From: Candidatus Woesearchaeota archaeon
GTDB lineage: Archaea > Nanobdellota > Nanobdellia > Pacearchaeales > GW2011-AR1
Assembly: GCA_964344105.1 (NCBI GenBank)
Contig: CAYFMD010000001.1
Span: 4,671 to 68,670, forward strand
Reading direction: 5' to 3'
DNA: 64,000 bases
Positions within the stretch are counted from its first letter, which is position 1; every line of letters begins with the position of its first letter. Both the position numbers and the translations under genes were made by a program. Positions 6,270 through 23,688 of this stretch are shown here, piece after piece. A model generated the notes under the pieces. The model was not told where the DNA came from. It was given only the letters and a program-made list of their open reading frames with translations, and did not search any database.

Positions 6270-8965
6270 AAAAAAATCTATTCCTATTGATAGTAGCCCT
6301 AATGGCAATAAACGTAGTATCTGCTACAATTGAAATTGGAAATCTATCTCATAACATTGAGGAAAGTTACGTTCCTGGAGCCGCATTAAAGGGATGGATA
6401 AACTTCAGCATGGAAGATGAGCCTGCAGATACTTTAATCACAGCCTTCGACAACTCTGTAACTATTCGAGACCTTCTTGAAGCTAATGATGTTTCCTGCA
6501 CTTTCCCAAATCCTTACGAATGTACCTGCCTTCCTTCTGACTGCCAACCTGGCTACAACACATTAAACTCTGGTGAATCATCAAAAACATATTCTCTAGG
6601 ATTACTACAATCAGAAACCTTCGGAATAAGGATAGATGAAAACGTTACAAAGGTATCAGATTTCAGATTTAATATCTCTTCTAATGCAGCTTCTTCATGT
6701 ACAAACCCATTACTAGTTGACTTATTAGACGATGGTTCTATAGATCTTAGAATAACAAATGTAACAGATGAAACTTGCTTCATTGAAAGCCCTTGGGGAT
6801 GCTTTAATCCAGAAGAAGTTTCAGGAAACACTACAATTGGAACAACTCCTTTATGTGAAAAAATAACTGTTCCTTCTGCTAAGGGATTTAAAATAGGAGC
6901 AGTGATTGATGGAACTGGAACAGCAAGCTTCATAATGAGTATCAATGCTAACGAATGCCAAATAAATAACATTGATGGATCTGGAGAAATCTCATGTAAC
7001 GTAATGTTAGAATCAGAAACAGAGCCAAATAGGGAACTAGAAGTTTGTATCTCAGCACAAGAAGGAATTAGCGAAGATAAATATAAAATAAACTTTGAAG
7101 ATAATAACACTTGCGGGTTTATAGATGATCTTGATAAAACTCCTCATGATTTTGAAATATTTGCAAAGCCTCTAAAATATGCAGCCCCTGGAGATCTATC
7201 TTTCTATGATGAGCTTTTTGATGACGATACAAACTTATCTGCACAAGTTTTCACTTATTTAGAAAACAGATACGATTCAACTTGTGATAACGAATGTATA
7301 ATCCCAATAAGAATCAGTTCAGGATTAAACCAAGTAATTACTGTTAAAGACATCTTCATGGATTACGATGTGAATGGATTAAACCCAACTGGCTCAGAAG
7401 CTACTCAAATATACGACATAGAATCTACGGAAGTATTATACGCAACACCATTCATCGAATACAATCTAGACGATCTTGAACTATTCACTCCACTATCTAC
7501 AGATGATGAAACCTTTCAACTAACAATAGGTGATGAAACTTTAGAAAACAACATTTCTCTAATAAACATAACAGGGGTATCTAGTATAATTCCTACGAGT
7601 GTTGCAGCATTAGTAAAAACAAGATTTTATGCAATAACTACTGGGGATGAAAATCTAACTTACACCTGGAACTTTGGAGACGGCTCGCAAATACAATCTA
7701 CATCAAAGAACTCAATAGAACACACTTATGCGACAACAGGATCATTTCAACTTTCAGTAAATATAACAAATGAACAAGGTACAACTTCAAAAATTGTAAC
7801 TGTAAATGTTCTAGCACCTTTTAACGCAATTAGAACAACAATAAATGGCTATAGATCTAAATTAAAGGCAATTGATGATAAGATATTCTTACTTTCAGAT
7901 AAAATTAAAGAAAGAGTAGCTAAGGTCATAGACACAGCAGATCTAACTAGTGCAATAAACAGAATAGATGAGCAATACAAAGAGCTATTTGAAACAGAAA
8001 GTGAAGAGCTAATCAAATTAATGAAGCAACTAAATGAGCTAAACATTCCTGAATCATTTGACACTTCACAAGAAATAAAATCTTCTCCTTTCTTCCAGAG
8101 CTCATCTAGATTAGACTTAGATCTAATAGGCGAATTCGGGGCAGGAAGCGTGGATTTAGATCGATCTGACGCATATCCAAATGCAATAAGATTGTGGCTA
8201 GAAGAAAATTTAGATATCAAGATGGAGTCAAAGACATATTCATTCTATCTAGTTGATGGAACTGAACAAGTGGCTGTAACTCATGTGAAGATGGAATTAA
8301 CTCCTAAGAGAGCAACAGATGAATTCTATATGGTAATTGAAGGCGACACTAATAGCATAAAGTTCATTGGAGATTATTCAGAAAGAGAAATAGATCCAAA
8401 CCATTTCGGTATAACTATAAGAAATCTAGAGCCCGAAGTAACTCAAACAATTGAATTCCTTCATCCAGAAAAAATTGAACCAACTAACCTTCCAATATTT
8501 GTATCTCCGGAATACAGATTTTTAGAGCTAGGATTCAGTGCAGGAGTTTGTAATAATGATGGTATCTGTAGTGGTGGTGAAAACTCTGACAACTGTAGGG
8601 CAGATTGTAAACCTGTAACTAGAACAATAATCTTCTTAGTAATCTTACTTATTGTGGCTTTCATAATCTATATAGTGCTACAAGAATGGTATAAGAGAAA
8701 CTATCAGAAGAGCTTATTCAAATCTCCAAATGAACTTTACAATCTAGTAACTTTCATGGGTAACGGAGTAAACCAGAAGCTTTCAAAGTCACAAATCTTT
8801 AACCAGCTTAAAGATAGAAAGTGGAGTAAAGAACAACTAAACTATGCTTGGAAAAAACTTCACAATAAAAGAACCGGAATGTTTGAAATCCCAATCCTAA
8901 GACCTTTCGAAAAACGAAAGATGAAAAAGGAAATGGCTAAAAGAAAAGCTCTAGGGCTAGCTTAA
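6266..8965 (+). CDS. Large cell-surface protein (899 aa) with signal peptide, PKD-like domain and C-terminal TM anchor
   Basis: The signal peptide is MKKNLFLLIVALMAINVVSA, the PKD signature is WNFGDGS...HTY...G, and the C-terminal TM helix is IIFLVILLIVAFIIYIVL. It overlaps the upstream gene by 4 nt (ATGA). Confidence 0.75.
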   Translation: MKKNLFLLIVALMAINVVSATIEIGNLSHNIEESYVPGAALKGWINFSMEDEPADTLITAFDNSVTIRDLLEANDVSCTFPNPYECTCLPSDCQPGYNTLNSGESSKTYSLGLLQSETFGIRIDENVTKVSDFRFNISSNAASSCTNPLLVDLLDDGSIDLRITNVTDETCFIESPWGCFNPEEVSGNTTIGTTPLCEKITVPSAKGFKIGAVIDGTGTASFIMSINANECQINNIDGSGEISCNVMLESETEPNRELEVCISAQEGISEDKYKINFEDNNTCGFIDDLDKTPHDFEIFAKPLKYAAPGDLSFYDELFDDDTNLSAQVFTYLENRYDSTCDNECIIPIRISSGLNQVITVKDIFMDYDVNGLNPTGSEATQIYDIESTEVLYATPFIEYNLDDLELFTPLSTDDETFQLTIGDETLENNISLINITGVSSIIPTSVAALVKTRFYAITTGDENLTYTWNFGDGSQIQSTSKNSIEHTYATTGSFQLSVNITNEQGTTSKIVTVNVLAPFNAIRTTINGYRSKLKAIDDKIFLLSDKIKERVAKVIDTADLTSAINRIDEQYKELFETESEELIKLMKQLNELNIPESFDTSQEIKSSPFFQSSSRLDLDLIGEFGAGSVDLDRSDAYPNAIRLWLEENLDIKMESKTYSFYLVDGTEQVAVTHVKMELTPKRATDEFYMVIEGDTNSIKFIGDYSEREIDPNHFGITIRNLEPEVTQTIEFLHPEKIEPTNLPIFVSPEYRFLELGFSAGVCNNDGICSGGENSDNCRADCKPVTRTIIFLVILLIVAFIIYIVLQEWYKRNYQKSLFKSPNELYNLVTFMGNGVNQKLSKSQIFNQLKDRKWSKEQLNYAWKKLHNKRTGMFEIPILRPFEKRKMKKEMAKRKALGLA

Positions 8966-9333
8966 AAATCCCATCCCTTAAACATAATTCTTAATCTATC
9001 TGTAAAATCTGGATTGGGCCTCATTCTATAATCATGACTTCCACCATAAGGTAATTGAAAAAGATTCCAATCAGTATATCTCGCACCAGTTCCACATCCA
9101 ACAACTTCATATCTATCTCCTTTTGGTAATGGCATAGTTTTCTTAACAGGATCTGTATCATAATCAACTCCTCTATCACCCAAAAACCTTGCAAGTATTT
9201 TACGATGAAATGCTTCTGTACCTCTTGTAGGCCCACAAACCATAATGGGCTCACCATCCAACATCAGCTGTACTAATTTAAACTCATCTTGTACTGGCAT
9301 ATCAACTAACACAATATCTCGATCCAAAGGCAT
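8962..9333 (-). CDS. Hypothetical protein (123 aa)
   Basis: It is a clean ORF lying divergent to the GTPase gene. I recognise no family. Confidence 0.45.
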   Translation of the reverse strand: MPLDRDIVLVDMPVQDEFKLVQLMLDGEPIMVCGPTRGTEAFHRKILARFLGDRGVDYDTDPVKKTMPLPKGDRYEVVGCGTGARYTDWNLFQLPYGGSHDYRMRPNPDFTDRLRIMFKGWDF

Positions 9334-12833: not shown

Positions 12834-13259
12834 TCACTCAGCACCATAGGCATCATTATATGCTCTAGTAAATTCTACTAATTGCACGATTTCAAGAGCC
12901 CTACTGTGATACCAATCAATCCTATCCTCTCTTCCTTCAGCAGATTCTGCAAACTCATCTCCTGGAACTAAAACTGAATATGTTCTATTTGTATCTCTAG
13001 GGGAATCAAATGAAACTGCACGCAAAGAATTTGCACTATCTCTTCTAGACAATCTTTCTGCTAAAGAATCCAAACTATTCGCCCTAAGAACTCCTCCATA
13101 ACCTTTGGCTATATATGAACCGTGAATAGCACCAGGGCTAACTCCTGTATCTTGAAAAACATGATATCTAATTGACTGGGTCTTTTTCTCTTTCCTATCT
13201 CCTCCAAGAATACTTTTTCCGTTAGCACTCATTTTATTCCTTCCCAACAGCCTGCTCAA
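12834..13259 (-). CDS. Hypothetical protein with R/S/D/A-rich, GC-shifted composition
   Basis: It is an ORF with a probable internal start (MSANGK...). Its composition is atypical for the window. Confidence 0.35.
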   Translation of the reverse strand: MSRLLGRNKMSANGKSILGGDRKEKKTQSIRYHVFQDTGVSPGAIHGSYIAKGYGGVLRANSLDSLAERLSRRDSANSLRAVSFDSPRDTNRTYSVLVPGDEFAESAEGREDRIDWYHSRALEIVQLVEFTRAYNDAYGAE

Positions 13260-14016
13260 ACATATAAGTCAAAGAACTTGCAAAGAATGGAGTATTCAAC
13301 CAAACAGCAATTTCTTCTTCAGGCATTCCAGTTTTAGAAATCATGAACAATACTTGTTCTGAATCTGAAATAAAGAATCTAGTATCAACATCTATCTTCT
13401 TAGCCTTGATCTTAAACTTAGTATTTATCTTCTTAATATCTTTCTCTTCACCGTTCAAAGCGATCTTGATCTTAATATTAGCCTTATTCAATCTATCAAA
13501 AACCAAACTAAAGAATCTTGATTTACTCTGAATCTCTTGAACTGAAGTACAAATTATAACTTCCTTAGCAGCATTCTCTAACAACTCCTTAATATGATTA
13601 TATATTGTTAGCTTACCTTTAATTGAACCACTAATATCCTCTTGCTTTATAGGCTGAATACCAACATTGTACAACTGCTCAAGCTCCTTATACTCATTAG
13701 TATCTCTCAACTTACTTATATTATCAATTCTCTCATTGGCTTCCTTCTGAGTGTTAGACTTAAGCTTCTCAATAATTATATTAGGCTTAACAGCTATGTA
13801 TTTAACTGGCTTACCTAGCTTCATAATAGCGAATCCTCTCTTCTCCAAACTCTCAAGTACATCATAAGTTCGACTTCTCGGAACACCACTAACTTCTGCA
13901 ATCTCTCCAGCACTAGCCAAACCCTTTCCTAAAAGAGCCAACCAAACCTTAGTTTCATAGATGTTTAAGGCAAAATGATCCTTAATTTGATTAACTAATT
14001 CTTGTTTAATTATCAT
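13234..14016 (-). CDS. TrmB-family transcriptional regulator
   Basis: The N-terminal wHTH is IYETKVWLALLGKGLASAGEIAEVSGVPRSRTYDVLESLEKRGF, and there is a C-terminal effector-domain-like region. Confidence 0.75.
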   Translation of the reverse strand: MIIKQELVNQIKDHFALNIYETKVWLALLGKGLASAGEIAEVSGVPRSRTYDVLESLEKRGFAIMKLGKPVKYIAVKPNIIIEKLKSNTQKEANERIDNISKLRDTNEYKELEQLYNVGIQPIKQEDISGSIKGKLTIYNHIKELLENAAKEVIICTSVQEIQSKSRFFSLVFDRLNKANIKIKIALNGEEKDIKKINTKFKIKAKKIDVDTRFFISDSEQVLFMISKTGMPEEEIAVWLNTPFFASSLTYMFEQAVGKE

Positions 14017-14017
14017 T

Positions 14018-14335
14018 TTATTTAACTACTCCTACATGTGCCGGAACATATACCTTCATCCCTTTAACACTTGTTTTAGTCAATCTACTAAAAATATATA
14101 GATTTGAATTTTCTGTTCCAATTCTCAAGGCAGTACCTGCTTCAACTTCACCATCTGGAGTTCCTGAGGGATAAAATCTATTGAATATTCTAAATCCAGC
14201 ATCTTCTACTACTCCTATCCTATAATCTCCTGCATTCTCGCCAAGACTAGCCTTATAGCCAGTAGCCTCAGTATCTAATGCAACGCTAACAAAATCTCCT
14301 ACACTCAACTCATCAAGTTTTAATCTTTTTGCCAT
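14018..14335 (-). CDS. Hypothetical protein (105 aa)
   Basis: It is an ORF lying divergent from the GHKL ATPase gene. Confidence 0.4.
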   Translation of the reverse strand: MAKRLKLDELSVGDFVSVALDTEATGYKASLGENAGDYRIGVVEDAGFRIFNRFYPSGTPDGEVEAGTALRIGTENSNLYIFSRLTKTSVKGMKVYVPAHVGVVK

Positions 14336-14373
14336 TTTATCTTCTAACTATTATAAAAAAGCGAACAAAAAAC

Positions 14374-14385
14374 CCTTTATAAAGG
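14374..14385. promoter_or_regulatory. Palindromic TATA-like element CCTTTATAAAGG in the divergent intergenic region upstream of the GHKL ATPase
   Basis: I saw this in the sequence. Confidence 0.35.
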
Positions 14386-14510
14386 TATCGATTGTTGTCA
14401 CTCAAGAATCAGAACAAATATCCCTTAACAAGCATTATCTTCATCCACCTTCGGTGATAAATAAAAAATCTATATGTTTTTAAGTAAAATTACCCTGATA
14501 TATCACAGTA

Positions 14511-16514
14511 ATGGCAAGAAAAAAAGCGACAAGAAAGGTGGCCACAAAAAGAGAAAAAACTAGCGAACCAAGGCCAGTTCAATTTTCCAGAGAACATGCA
14601 GATAATCTTGATGAATTAGTTGCTGAATTCATTGATAGAGGGCCAATACATTCTGTGGAGGAACTAATTGCAAATTCATCAGATGCAGATGCAAATAATG
14701 TTTGGATAACCTATGATAAACCTGGAGATTTATTAATTATTGAAGATGATGGGAGGGGGATGATTGGCAAGGAGATAGATGGTTTTTTTAGAATGGGGGG
14801 TAGTAAGAAAAGAGATTTAGACCGTACTGAAGGAGGACGTAAATTTATGGGTAATTATGGGGTTGGAGCAATTTTAGTAGGCAGATTATCAAGTGAATAC
14901 GAACTAGTAACAACTAAAGAGGGTATAGAAACAACGGTGCCAGAAAGATTTGGAGATGGCATTCCAAAGCTGGCTGATGGTACTGAAATAGATGTTGATC
15001 CAGAATTACATGGTACAAAGATAACTATGAGGGGGTTAAAATTTGGAAATAGAAATGATTTTGAAATAGAAGATGTAATAAGGACTTATCAATGGGAACT
15101 AGAATTAACTCCTGATTTTAGAGTACATATTAATGGAGAGGAAATTCAACCGAGAGCTATCGAAACTGGAAAGGAATTTTCAGTAGATGCTACGGGGGAT
15201 AATGTTGGAGAAGTAACCGGGACGATCTACTATACAGGTAAAACTTCAGGTAGTTCTGGAATACATATTAGAGTAAACAACAGAAGGGTAGGAGATCCAA
15301 AAGCTCTTTTAAAAAAATATGCTAATAGGACTTCTATGCTAGGAAGGACTGTTGCTTTCATAAATGCTGATGGATTAGCAGATTCAATAGATTTTGGAAG
15401 AACAGCCTTTAGAGAGAACACTACAGCATATGCAGAATTTGAATCAATTTTAGAAAAATCTCTAAGGGAGGTTGCAAGATTCTCAAAAGAAGATAGTGCG
15501 GGTAAGAGTATTGCTGCAGTATCCAGAAAAGCAGATACATTAGCAGAAAACGTTCAATTCAGATTGACTAAGGCAAGAGTTGGGCCCGTAGATGCTGAAA
15601 CGGTAGTTTTGTTAGATACAGGAGATTCAGAAAATGTAGGAGCTTTCGATCTTTCAAGAAATACGTTAACAATAAATAGGAATCACCCTCAAGTCATAGT
15701 ATCTGGAAGTATGAATGCAGCCCAATATGAACAGGCCTTATTAGATGCAGCAATTGGAGTATTAGCACAACATGGCGCAGATAGTCGTGGGGGAACTCTT
15801 TATGCATACCTAGATGAACAAAGAAAATTATGGAAGCAACTAAAGGGAATTGGAGAGGGAGGTGTAGTCTCTAGCGGTCCAGAAATCTCTCCTAATTTAT
15901 TCTATGAGCCAAAAGAATTGGGAAGATTAGGTATCTTTGGGGGTAATACTCTAAAAGATATGATTGCAGTAGGCATAATAAGAAACAAGGATATAAGTAG
16001 CGGAAAAATAAGGGGGTCTGCATATGAAGGGGTGGTAGGGGGGCTAGATGGATTTATATCATTAGTAGATTTATGTAATAGAGAATCTTCTGAAGGAACG
16101 CAAGATAGAATAAGAAAAACTAAATTGGTACTTGATCATGCTGCAGATAATTCAAGACCTTTTGTATACTGTTTTACGGATGAAACTGCGGATAATGAAT
16201 TATATCTTTTAGATCAAACTGTTGCATCAAGAGTGCATACTTATGCAACAACCCTTTCTATGGCCAGGGGAGATGATGGTCCTGAGAAAAATAGACAAAA
16301 TATAAGACAGTGGTTTCATCAGTTAGGAGATTCTTACGCAAATTTATCTGAATTAGAAACTCATTTAGAGAGAGTAGATGGAGGATTCATAAGGAGTTCA
16401 ATAGAACAAGGAAATGTTAGAAAAAGACAACACTCTTATAGAATTGGAGATGTAATAACTGCAATACAAACTGCGAGAGGAAATGATAAAATTCTGGCTA
16501 GAATAAGGGCCTAA
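14511..16514 (+). CDS. GHKL-superfamily ATPase (MORC / HATPase_c_3-like), 667 aa
   Basis: It has the N-box ELIANSSDADA, the G1 box IEDDGRGM and the G2 box GNYGVGAI in order. Its codon usage is G-ending and about 40% GC, unlike the neighbouring genes. Confidence 0.6.
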   Translation: MARKKATRKVATKREKTSEPRPVQFSREHADNLDELVAEFIDRGPIHSVEELIANSSDADANNVWITYDKPGDLLIIEDDGRGMIGKEIDGFFRMGGSKKRDLDRTEGGRKFMGNYGVGAILVGRLSSEYELVTTKEGIETTVPERFGDGIPKLADGTEIDVDPELHGTKITMRGLKFGNRNDFEIEDVIRTYQWELELTPDFRVHINGEEIQPRAIETGKEFSVDATGDNVGEVTGTIYYTGKTSGSSGIHIRVNNRRVGDPKALLKKYANRTSMLGRTVAFINADGLADSIDFGRTAFRENTTAYAEFESILEKSLREVARFSKEDSAGKSIAAVSRKADTLAENVQFRLTKARVGPVDAETVVLLDTGDSENVGAFDLSRNTLTINRNHPQVIVSGSMNAAQYEQALLDAAIGVLAQHGADSRGGTLYAYLDEQRKLWKQLKGIGEGGVVSSGPEISPNLFYEPKELGRLGIFGGNTLKDMIAVGIIRNKDISSGKIRGSAYEGVVGGLDGFISLVDLCNRESSEGTQDRIRKTKLVLDHAADNSRPFVYCFTDETADNELYLLDQTVASRVHTYATTLSMARGDDGPEKNRQNIRQWFHQLGDSYANLSELETHLERVDGGFIRSSIEQGNVRKRQHSYRIGDVITAIQTARGNDKILARIRA

Positions 16515-16533
16515 TTAACTCTTATCCCAAACT

Positions 16534-16761
16534 CTAAATATTAAACTCCAACTTAAACAAATCGCTATAATCAGATCTTTCTTTTCCCGTCGCTGGTCGC
16601 TCATAAGGCATACCGCAATTAGTACAGTTAACTAATACATCTCTGCCTGGTTGATATTGAACAGCAACAACACTTGGATATGGATGACCCCTATCTGCAC
16701 ATTCTCCCATACGTTCAAATTTAGCCCTAGCTTCACTCAAATCAACCTCTAATGTAGTCAT
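16534..16761 (-). CDS. Small Cys-containing protein (75 aa), possibly a Zn-ribbon
   Basis: It contains GECADRGH and NCTNCG motifs and has GC-shifted composition. It is convergent with the GHKL gene. Confidence 0.35.
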   Translation of the reverse strand: MTTLEVDLSEARAKFERMGECADRGHPYPSVVAVQYQPGRDVLVNCTNCGMPYERPATGKERSDYSDLFKLEFNI

Positions 16762-17821: not shown

Positions 17822-18559
17822 CTATGAATCAGATTTTTGACATACATAAGTGCCAAAATATATTTCATCCCTCATAGGGCGGAGCATCATCTGAATTCCA
17901 TCATTAGAATTTACCACTAGGGATAACCCTTCCCTACTACCTTCCTCGATATACCCTAATTCCTTAGCATCAAAGTGATATGTACAAAGAGAATTTGTAG
18001 GTGGATTTCTATATGTTCTCACTGGAAATCCTTGGGCACTCAGTTCAGATAGAAGGAAATAACCACTGCCCTCCCATCTTTCTACTCTTTCCCTAGATCT
18101 AACGAGTTCAGATCCTTCAATATCTTCAATAACTTCAATTTCTAATCCATCTCTTTCTTTAAATACTGCACAATTTAATCTAGCATAAGCTCCATTGAAG
18201 ATCCCTCCCTCATTAAACCCTCTAGTAATATCAACGATATTTTTTGCCTCTCTATTTGGAATGATATCCCCATATCCATTTCTTAAATTATATTTGCCGC
18301 ATGCCCATTTATTTAATTCGTTGAGGAATTGTATATAAATTGGTAAGGTAGCTCCCATCAGTCCATCCATAACTAATCTCCTATGAGCCTCTGTATGATC
18401 CCGATCCACACACTTATCTGGAAATTTAGAAATCATAAAATCAGTACCGGGTAATAAAATAAATCTATTAGGATCTCCTACACCTTCTCTAGGATTGTGC
18501 CTCTCTTCTGATCCTAAAACATGTTCAATCAATCGCTTGGCCATGAATAAAGATAACAA
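17822..18559 (-). CDS. Hypothetical protein with GC-shifted composition
   Basis: It is a clean ORF with a probable start at MAKRLIEHV. I recognise no family. Confidence 0.4.
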   Translation of the reverse strand: MLSLFMAKRLIEHVLGSEERHNPREGVGDPNRFILLPGTDFMISKFPDKCVDRDHTEAHRRLVMDGLMGATLPIYIQFLNELNKWACGKYNLRNGYGDIIPNREAKNIVDITRGFNEGGIFNGAYARLNCAVFKERDGLEIEVIEDIEGSELVRSRERVERWEGSGYFLLSELSAQGFPVRTYRNPPTNSLCTYHFDAKELGYIEEGSREGLSLVVNSNDGIQMMLRPMRDEIYFGTYVCQKSDS

Positions 18560-23424: not shown

Positions 23425-23688
23425 TCAATCATCAAAATCAAGAGTCCCTTCTAGATCAACCACCTCTCCATTATCAGGTACTGGTATGGCATCAAAAGAG
23501 TCATATACTCTAAGCATATAATCATGAGGATGTTCGGTAATTCTATAGTTATCCATCAATTTCTCTCGCCTATCCATCCTACCCCCCGTATCTTCTAGAG
23601 TTAGTATATTACCATCATCATTAACAACTATCTCTCCTCCTCTAATTAAACAAAGATATCTTGGACGATCCATATTAAAATCAACCAC
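23425..23688 (-). CDS. Hypothetical protein (87 aa)
   Basis: It is a clean ORF upstream of the Rad50-like gene. It is not Mre11. Confidence 0.4.
   Translation of the reverse strand: MVDFNMDRPRYLCLIRGGEIVVNDDGNILTLEDTGGRMDRREKLMDNYRITEHPHDYMLRVYDSFDAIPVPDNGEVVDLEGTLDFDD

Follow-up and report, generated by a model that had tools for sequence, protein, structure and literature searches.

A fast-evolving MORC-like GHKL ATPase inserted between conserved genes of a DPANN archaeon: a candidate DNA clamp of a DPANN-restricted family

What is a solitary MORC-like GHKL ATPase doing in the genome of a DPANN archaeon? DPANN archaea have tiny genomes in which very few accessory or defence functions are understood, and prokaryotic MORC-like ATPases, which are thought to be ancestral to the eukaryotic chromatin silencers, are to our knowledge known almost only from bacterial restriction contexts. 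The question is raised by a gene for a protein of 667 amino acids (aa) at positions 14511..16514 (+ strand, ATG start) of a 64-kb stretch of contig CAYFMD010000001.1 from a Candidatus Woesearchaeota archaeon. This whole stretch is here called the window, and over the 22 kb compared it is an exact match to the 56.7-kb Logan contig L002. A first-pass annotation, made on the letters alone, had placed the gene in a DPANN-type genome, and indeed the related loci come from metagenome-assembled genomes (MAGs) of Pacearchaeota, Woesearchaeota or Nanoarchaeota. We favour, with a probability of about 45%, the view that the gene is part of an accessory cassette of paraMORC type encoding an ATP-gated DNA clamp, with a conflict-related or regulatory role. 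The cassette, of ~2.4 kb, would comprise a promoter, the MORC-like ATPase and, in this lineage, an open reading frame (ORF) for a 75-aa zinc-finger protein.

The 667-aa ORF and the motifs by which it had been recognised are all intact. The N box (E51-LIAN55-SSD58-ADA), the G1 box (D79-DGRGM), the G2 box (G114-NYGVGAI) and G168-T169 are 86-100% conserved across the 52 aligned family members that were used for motif conservation, Pfam searches and the structure model. The protein has motifs I-IV and the Bergerat fold of the GHKL superfamily, and Pfam HATPase_c_3 (PF13589) matches residues 49-141 (E=9.5e-12, 45.5 bits against a gathering score of 25). The only PHROGs match is phrog_6203, of unknown function, over residues 47-234. 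Across the 52 members HATPase_c_3 is the sole Pfam domain, and in each of them the C-terminal ~500 aa are without a Pfam match. AlphaFold2, run with the 52-sequence alignment, returned a mean confidence (pLDDT) of 89.8 for the full length and of 91.4 for residues 300-667 modelled separately.

According to this model, the GHKL (Bergerat) ATP-binding domain (aa 21-200, 14571..15110, +) passes directly into an S5-fold transducer domain (aa 201-300, 15111..15410, +) with a MutL-like 'VNxRRVGDP' motif and the conserved R297, the succession that marks the MORC/paraMORC-type module. The predicted order then continues with a long antiparallel helical hairpin (aa 301-355, 15411..15575, +; helices 305-339 and 341-354, pLDDT >90), an inactive zincin-like domain and two winged helix-turn-helix (wHTH) units of the excisionase (Xis)/MerR type. 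The zincin-like domain is catalytically dead, lacking the HExxH motif of the zincin metalloproteases (Wss1, SprT, minigluzincins). Both wHTH units were assigned from secondary structure, the second of them, with a C-terminal helix, at aa 591-667 (16281..16511, +), and an alpha/beta middle module of no known fold, with a beta hairpin and the conserved P550-F551, is predicted at aa 529-590 (16095..16280, +). Among the domains for which the C-terminal region was to be inspected, the S5 domain was thus found, and nuclease, HEPN and methyl-reader domains were not; the hairpin, the dead zincin-like fold and the two predicted wHTH units occupy the region instead.

Word-indexed searches brought up just 3 proteins closely related to the GHKL protein. 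When 1.84 billion representatives were scanned exhaustively with HMMER, 3816 matches were obtained, 161 of them at E<1e-30, and we accordingly count at least 161 representatives in the family. Dozens of members align end to end (620-700 aa), at 22-30% identity to the window protein, and all source names seen were Woesearchaeota, Pacearchaeota, Nanoarchaeota or an unclassified 'archaeon'. Judged by these alignments, the protein belongs to an undescribed, DPANN-restricted family of MORC-like ATPases. A scan of GTDB genomes and JGI metagenomes for the GHKL pattern with a 3-sequence alignment gave no matches; a scan with a 12-sequence alignment yielded 3 further full-length loci besides a sister family of ~490 aa. 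This sister family (~490-510 aa) is widespread in metagenomes (L100-L176; for example L107:5944-7413 and L123:5953-7407) and has the GHKL, S5, hairpin and zincin-like parts (profile positions ~5-440) without the two wHTH units. Its neighbours, which include ADH-like genes and a two-component-like pair, showed no conserved partner.

The position of the gene was compared among 80 loci obtained by a CPSF-anchored search of GTDB representatives. Their titles are mostly Pacearchaeota, Woesearchaeota and Nanoarchaeota, with few bacterial or unclassified ones, and the backbone Rad50-proteasome-CPSF-presenilin-TrmB-CCA is kept in most of those that are sufficiently long. Hidden Markov models of the GHKL and 75-aa proteins matched 0 of the 80 loci. 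In the closest GTDB representatives, L004 and L005 (CPSF 92%, TrmB 89-91% identical), the site is empty, with just 66 bp from the presenilin stop to the TrmB start. The cassette lies at this same presenilin-TrmB site in four sampled loci of one shallow clade, namely the window, L003, L001 and L088, the last three with GHKL proteins 78%, about 42-43% and 44% identical to that of the window. In all four, a copy of the ancestral spacer still precedes the GHKL gene and runs into AAT[C/T]AGAACAAA, the sequence that forms the stop codon and last codons of presenilin where the site is empty. In the window, this retained copy forms the left junction (14336..14418, no strand), which aligns collinearly with L004 and L005 at their empty sites, carries a TATA-like CTTTATAAAGG at 14375 and ends in AATCAGAACAAA (14407-14418), a leftover, now orphaned, of the presenilin 3' end. 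The cassette of L088 is flanked on either side by ATTAGAACAAA, a direct repeat of 11 nt with identical copies (12 of 2000 shuffles); in the window and L001 a flanking repeat had no statistical support, its copies having decayed. Taken together, these sequence comparisons point to a single insertion at the presenilin 3' end, with a short target duplication, and vertical descent thereafter.

Within the cassette, the region upstream of the GHKL gene (14445..14510, +) is a putative archaeal promoter. Its block AATCTATATGTTTTTAAGTAAAAT (14467-14490) does not differ between the window, L001 and L003, despite GHKL proteins that are 42-78% identical. The same region holds CCACCTTCGGTG (14445-14456), which can form a hairpin with a UUCG-like loop and is partly conserved in L001 and L003. 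At the other end, the convergent Cys-containing ORF that had been noted after the GHKL gene is indeed there (16534..16761, - strand) and encodes 75 aa with a zinc-finger-like C-x4-H...C-x2-C arrangement, of which C21, H26, C46 and C49 are conserved. The 75-aa protein has no match in Pfam, PDB or NCBIfam, and among 5.8e9 proteins it forms 3 clusters only. Its ORF adjoins the GHKL gene both in the window and in L001, and on a 618-bp contig there is a third copy that may face a GHKL C-terminus, as read by eye from 7 residues. The 75-aa ORF is thus a lineage-restricted companion of the GHKL gene.

The GHKL gene evolves much faster than its surroundings. Between the window and L001, the backbone proteins are 88-96% identical in amino acids, with a nonsynonymous divergence (dN) of 0.03-0.09, a synonymous divergence (dS) of 0.7-1.7 and a dN/dS of 0.04-0.10. 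The corresponding values are 43%, 0.54, 1.33 and 0.41 for the GHKL protein and about 64-65%, 0.28, 1.23 and 0.23 for the 75-aa ORF. Comparisons with L088 gave the same pattern, so that across comparisons GHKL identity is 42-52% versus 85-96% for the backbone, dN is 0.49-0.54 versus 0.03-0.14, and dN/dS is 0.23-0.41 versus 0.03-0.12. The divergence is distributed over all domains of the GHKL protein. The gene is therefore under purifying selection, yet evolves 6-16x faster than its backbone neighbours. Its dS, equal to that of the backbone, and its host-like synonymous composition argue against a recent foreign acquisition or allele replacement. Replacement by a xenologous allele was considered and set aside as unneeded, GHKL dS being that of the backbone and the window allele being barely more distant from outgroups.

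Composition gave a different picture from that first drawn, in which the gene had G-ending codons richer in GC than those of the TrmB and presenilin genes at its sides. The GC content at third codon positions (GC3) is 0.20 in the GHKL gene versus 0.32 in TrmB and 0.36 in presenilin; the gene is A-ending (0.45), and third-position G is 0.13 versus 0.26-0.28 in its two neighbours. At fourfold-degenerate sites it has A.46, T.34, G.13 and C.07, similar to other + strand genes. Overall GC is marginally above that of the neighbours (0.37 vs 0.33-0.36), because of codon positions 1-2 in a protein rich in R, G and A and poor in K, with more arginine than lysine (R>K). As about half of all ORFs of the window carry the same R>K signature, there is no discrete compositional island; GC is unremarkable around the gene at 1-kb resolution, and the local reversal of the negative GC skew is due to a + strand gene among - strand genes. 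The description of the locus as an atypical island consequently does not hold for composition, whereas comparative genomics does support it in another sense, that of an inserted and variable cassette. A very strongly negative GC skew (-0.3 to -0.5) extends over almost all 64 kb, and at fourfold-degenerate sites + strand genes are rich in A and - strand genes in T (0.54-0.69), which indicates an unusually strong strand asymmetry in the window, where nearly all genes lie on the - strand.

How might such a protein act? On the reading that we favour, ATP binding would dimerise the N-terminal modules, as in MORC, MutL, Hsp90 and GyrB; by analogy with every characterised GHKL+S5 protein, this N-terminal dimer should close upon ATP. 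With its C-terminal wHTH units holding it on DNA, the dimer would become a closed clamp that could trap, compact or occlude the target DNA. The hairpin and the pseudo-protease domain may dock lineage-specific partners, which would be the zinc-finger protein here and a sigma-like or a large 1057-aa protein elsewhere. We thus infer ATPase activity, dimerisation and DNA binding, together with a biological role of this kind, for the GHKL protein. Since it has no nuclease, silencing, exclusion or transcriptional control is likelier than cleavage, and presence/absence polymorphism, rapid evolution, location in a hot spot and variable partners together speak for a conflict-related or regulatory accessory role over a housekeeping one. 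A nuclease-free MORC-like ATPase with predicted wHTH units and a dead protease fold, carried in a polymorphic cassette, would be a tractable archaeal candidate for a silencing-type action.

Several observations weigh against this reading. Neither in the protein nor next to the gene did we find an effector (nuclease, helicase, methylase, TIR or HEPN). No PADLOC-DB v2 system was matched either: the protein met only the GHKL domain of the REase_II, TmtA, MzaB and mad1 models, and matches of the neighbouring genes are at chance level (E 0.009-0.02). The proposal of a defence or chromatin-remodelling module stays plausible as a role that the protein may have, but not as a recognisable defence system. 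With host-like synonymous sites and a dS at backbone level, the gene may just be under weak constraint and have resided here for long, and a dN/dS below 1 is no proof of an arms race. The 75-aa ORF is absent in L088, so that its partnership with the GHKL protein is no more than putative. Finally, no full-length relative was found in 2.9 million viral contigs, GenBank phages or PLSDB plasmids, where the viral contigs gave GHKL-level matches only and the single phage match was GHKL-only, in a gene annotated ParaMORC3. This negative is neither for nor against an origin in mobile genetic elements, because DPANN elements are poorly sampled.

The strongest of the rival explanations, which we hold to be unlikely, is that of a transcription-linked regulator. 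The GHKL protein would be the partner or controller of orphan sigma homologues of DPANN archaea, a MORC-like analogue of SpoIIAB, and the target of the window copy would be either a sigma-like gene that is not linked to it or DNA itself, contacted by way of the wHTH units. It draws on three independent family members in which a gene for a ~400-aa protein with a sigma-type C-terminus lies directly 3' of the GHKL gene (L089:12057-13268; L092:2556-3791; L095:2279-3475, also seen in L096), starting -20 to +2 nt after it. Residues ~146-384 of this protein are of the FliA/WhiG/SigF type (PDB 6pfv, E=2e-24, with Sigma70_r2 exceeding its Pfam gathering score) and are preceded by an N-terminal domain of ~145 aa. 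A fourth locus keeps only that N-terminal domain, in a downstream ORF of 344 aa (L099:7871-8905, E 4e-16). Moreover, Castelle et al. 2021 (PMC8204110) described sigma-70 genes in DPANN, mainly in Woesearchaeota, found no anti-sigma factor and noted that these orphan genes had no known regulator. Against it stand the 64-kb window itself, which holds no sigma-like ORF, and five other contexts without a sigma partner (the window clade, L088, L090, L093 and L244). No such partner lies downstream in L090/L091 and L093/L094, and in L244 the Woesearchaeota member is followed, in operonic arrangement, by an unrelated 1057-aa protein (L244:7962-11135). In addition, the GHKL protein is here MORC-like (GHKL+S5) and not of the small HATPase_c_2 anti-sigma type, and archaea are without the bacterial core RNA polymerase as a sigma target. 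As to the 1057-aa protein, a reading as a calcineurin-type metallophosphoesterase (Mre11/SbcD), based on GDxxx/GNHE/GHxH seen by eye, was dropped when Pfam and PDB gave no support.

A broader proposal, speculative and in our estimation rather unlikely, would join the clamp with the sigma genes: the family as a whole may be a nuclease-free MORC-type clamp with exchangeable partners and supply the controller or co-factor that the orphan sigma factors of Woesearchaeota have so far lacked, the window cassette being a minimal variant made of the ATPase and a 75-aa zinc-finger adaptor. If the link with the sigma homologues were functional, the interest of the family would rise, and the recurrent operonic association with FliA-type sigma genes would offer a testable handle on the role and control of DPANN sigma factors, a question that arises from Castelle et al. 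2021.

We consider it improbable that the cassette is the remnant of an integrated mobile element, whose GHKL-Xis-like protein would serve the directionality of excision, partition or maintenance. The insertion of a cassette at a gene 3' end, with duplication of the target sequence, the predicted tandem excisionase-type wHTH domains, typical of integrative elements, and the presence/absence polymorphism would all suit such an origin. Set against these, the cassette has only ~2.4 kb and no integrase, replication or capsid gene, full-length relatives were missing from the viral, phage and plasmid records mentioned above, and one allele clade at one site in four loci, with dS at backbone level, speaks for a long vertical residence.

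Still more doubtful is a restriction-type defence enzyme, of the paraMORC or the BbrUII/HgiDII kind, whose nuclease would have escaped recognition in either the C-terminal half or the 75-aa partner. The best named profiles are NF050001 (E 4e-16, aa 50-214) and PADLOC REase_II, of similar length and matched by 45 of the 52 members, the only phage match bears the ParaMORC3 annotation, and MORC and paraMORC proteins are placed in restriction-modification (R-M) systems by Iyer et al. 2008 (PMC2292703). Yet these matches span the GHKL domain only (NF050001: 58.6 bits against a cut-off of 550), methylase, helicase and endonuclease genes were found in 0 of 9 family contexts, and the SF2 helicase, methylase, TIR or nuclease (restriction endonuclease (RE)-fold, HNH, Vsr) that accompanies paraMORC proteins of R-M systems is neither a neighbour nor a fusion here. 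A housekeeping GHKL protein, that is, a divergent Hsp90/HtpG, a MutL-like repair factor or topoisomerase VI-B, is highly improbable, and the first-pass annotation survives this objection: Foldseek does list Hsp90/TRAP1, MutL and GyrB at E~1e-13, but with TM-scores on the query of no more than 0.3-0.36, NCBIfam scores fall well short of their cut-offs (MutL TIGR00585, 22.5 against 180 bits and over aa 39-90 only; HSP90, 18 against 455 bits), PDB sequence-profile matches stop within the Bergerat fold (~aa 137-198; for MutL at ~aa 104), and neither the closest relatives nor any of the 80 GTDB loci have the gene, which evolves 6-16x faster than the backbone.

The surroundings of the cassette are variable as well. 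A 105-aa ORF (14018..14335, -) abuts the TrmB start codon; it has no family match in Pfam, NCBIfam or PHROGs, is absent in L001 and L088, and has an unrelated 108-aa ORF in its place in L003. It is a separate, later, lineage-specific insertion outside the conserved cassette. The two unrelated inserts (window 14010-14345; L003:120-460) share one insertion point, and that of the window is bounded by a duplicated CATTTTAT. More generally, the R>K, low-GC3 ORFs of the window alternate one by one with K-rich conserved genes. Small examples lie at 8962-9333, 12834-13259, 14018-14335, 17822-18559 and 23425-23688, and for each of these five, which all lie between 9 and 24 kb, one or more of the close relatives that cover it (L001, L004, L088) lack the ORF or have another in its place, which suggests frequent insertions of single genes into intergenic spacers. 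The adjoining presenilin-CPSF spacer holds an unrelated 245-aa ORF in the window (17822-18559), a 295-aa ORF in L001 and nothing in L004. In L088 it carries a four-gene cassette (L088:10657-15060) for proteins of 149, 423, 438 (Prok-JAB) and 456 aa (ThiF/E1), which resembles the ubiquitin-like, Bil/CBASS-associated conflict systems; with such a cassette in the next slot, the spacers of this region are seen to collect genes of the conflict type.

How does the family compare with known systems? With the eukaryotic MORC2, MORC3 and SMCHD1 the window protein shares a coiled-coil-like helical element after the ATPase module and a predicted ATP-driven dimerisation on DNA. It differs from them in sequence (13-18% identity; MORC2/MORC3 17-18%), in the absence of CW, chromo and hinge domains, in a C-terminus predicted to consist of a pseudo-zincin and two Xis-type wHTH units, and in its archaeal DPANN host. 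It also falls outside MORC sensu stricto, Morc6_S5 matching 1 of the 52 members (E 0.005) and not the window protein. Two further GHKL groups are set apart by architecture, as neither the GHKL-H2TH-transducer order with an adjacent Top6A of topoisomerase VI subunit B nor a HisKA/DHp domain upstream of HATPase_c, as in sensor histidine kinases, was found. MutL has a similar 'VNgRxV' strand motif in its N-terminal domain; the window protein lacks the C-terminal dimerisation/endonuclease domain of MutL and a MutS context, and is not conserved among relatives. The likeness to SpoIIAB/RsbW, a GHKL protein beside a group-3 (FliA/SigF-like) sigma homologue, concerns distant family members only; there is no sigma-like neighbour at the window locus, and a functional analogy is speculative.

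The closest named sequence relative is the HATPase_c_3 domain of BbrUII/HgiDII (NF050001; PADLOC REase_II; E 4e-16). These enzymes and the GHKL-Shedu protein VcSduA (PMC12137116) resemble the window protein in length (~610-695 aa) and in being single-protein systems, but end in a PD-(D/E)xK/DUF4263 nuclease, in whose place the window protein has non-catalytic domains. The prokaryotic MORC and paraMORC1-5 proteins (Iyer, Abhiman and Aravind 2008, PMC2292703) share with it the GHKL+S5 module with intact ATP motifs, a family-specific C-terminal extension and a sporadic, laterally mobile distribution in hot spots. ParaMORC1-5 are defined by SF2 helicase, methylase and RE-fold/HNH/TIR neighbours, whereas none occurs in the nine contexts here. 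That survey found only three archaeal MORCs, and the C-terminal architecture of the present family is not described in it. In conclusion, MORC/paraMORC-like ATPases as such were already known, and what is new here is the DPANN family and its predicted C-terminal architecture.

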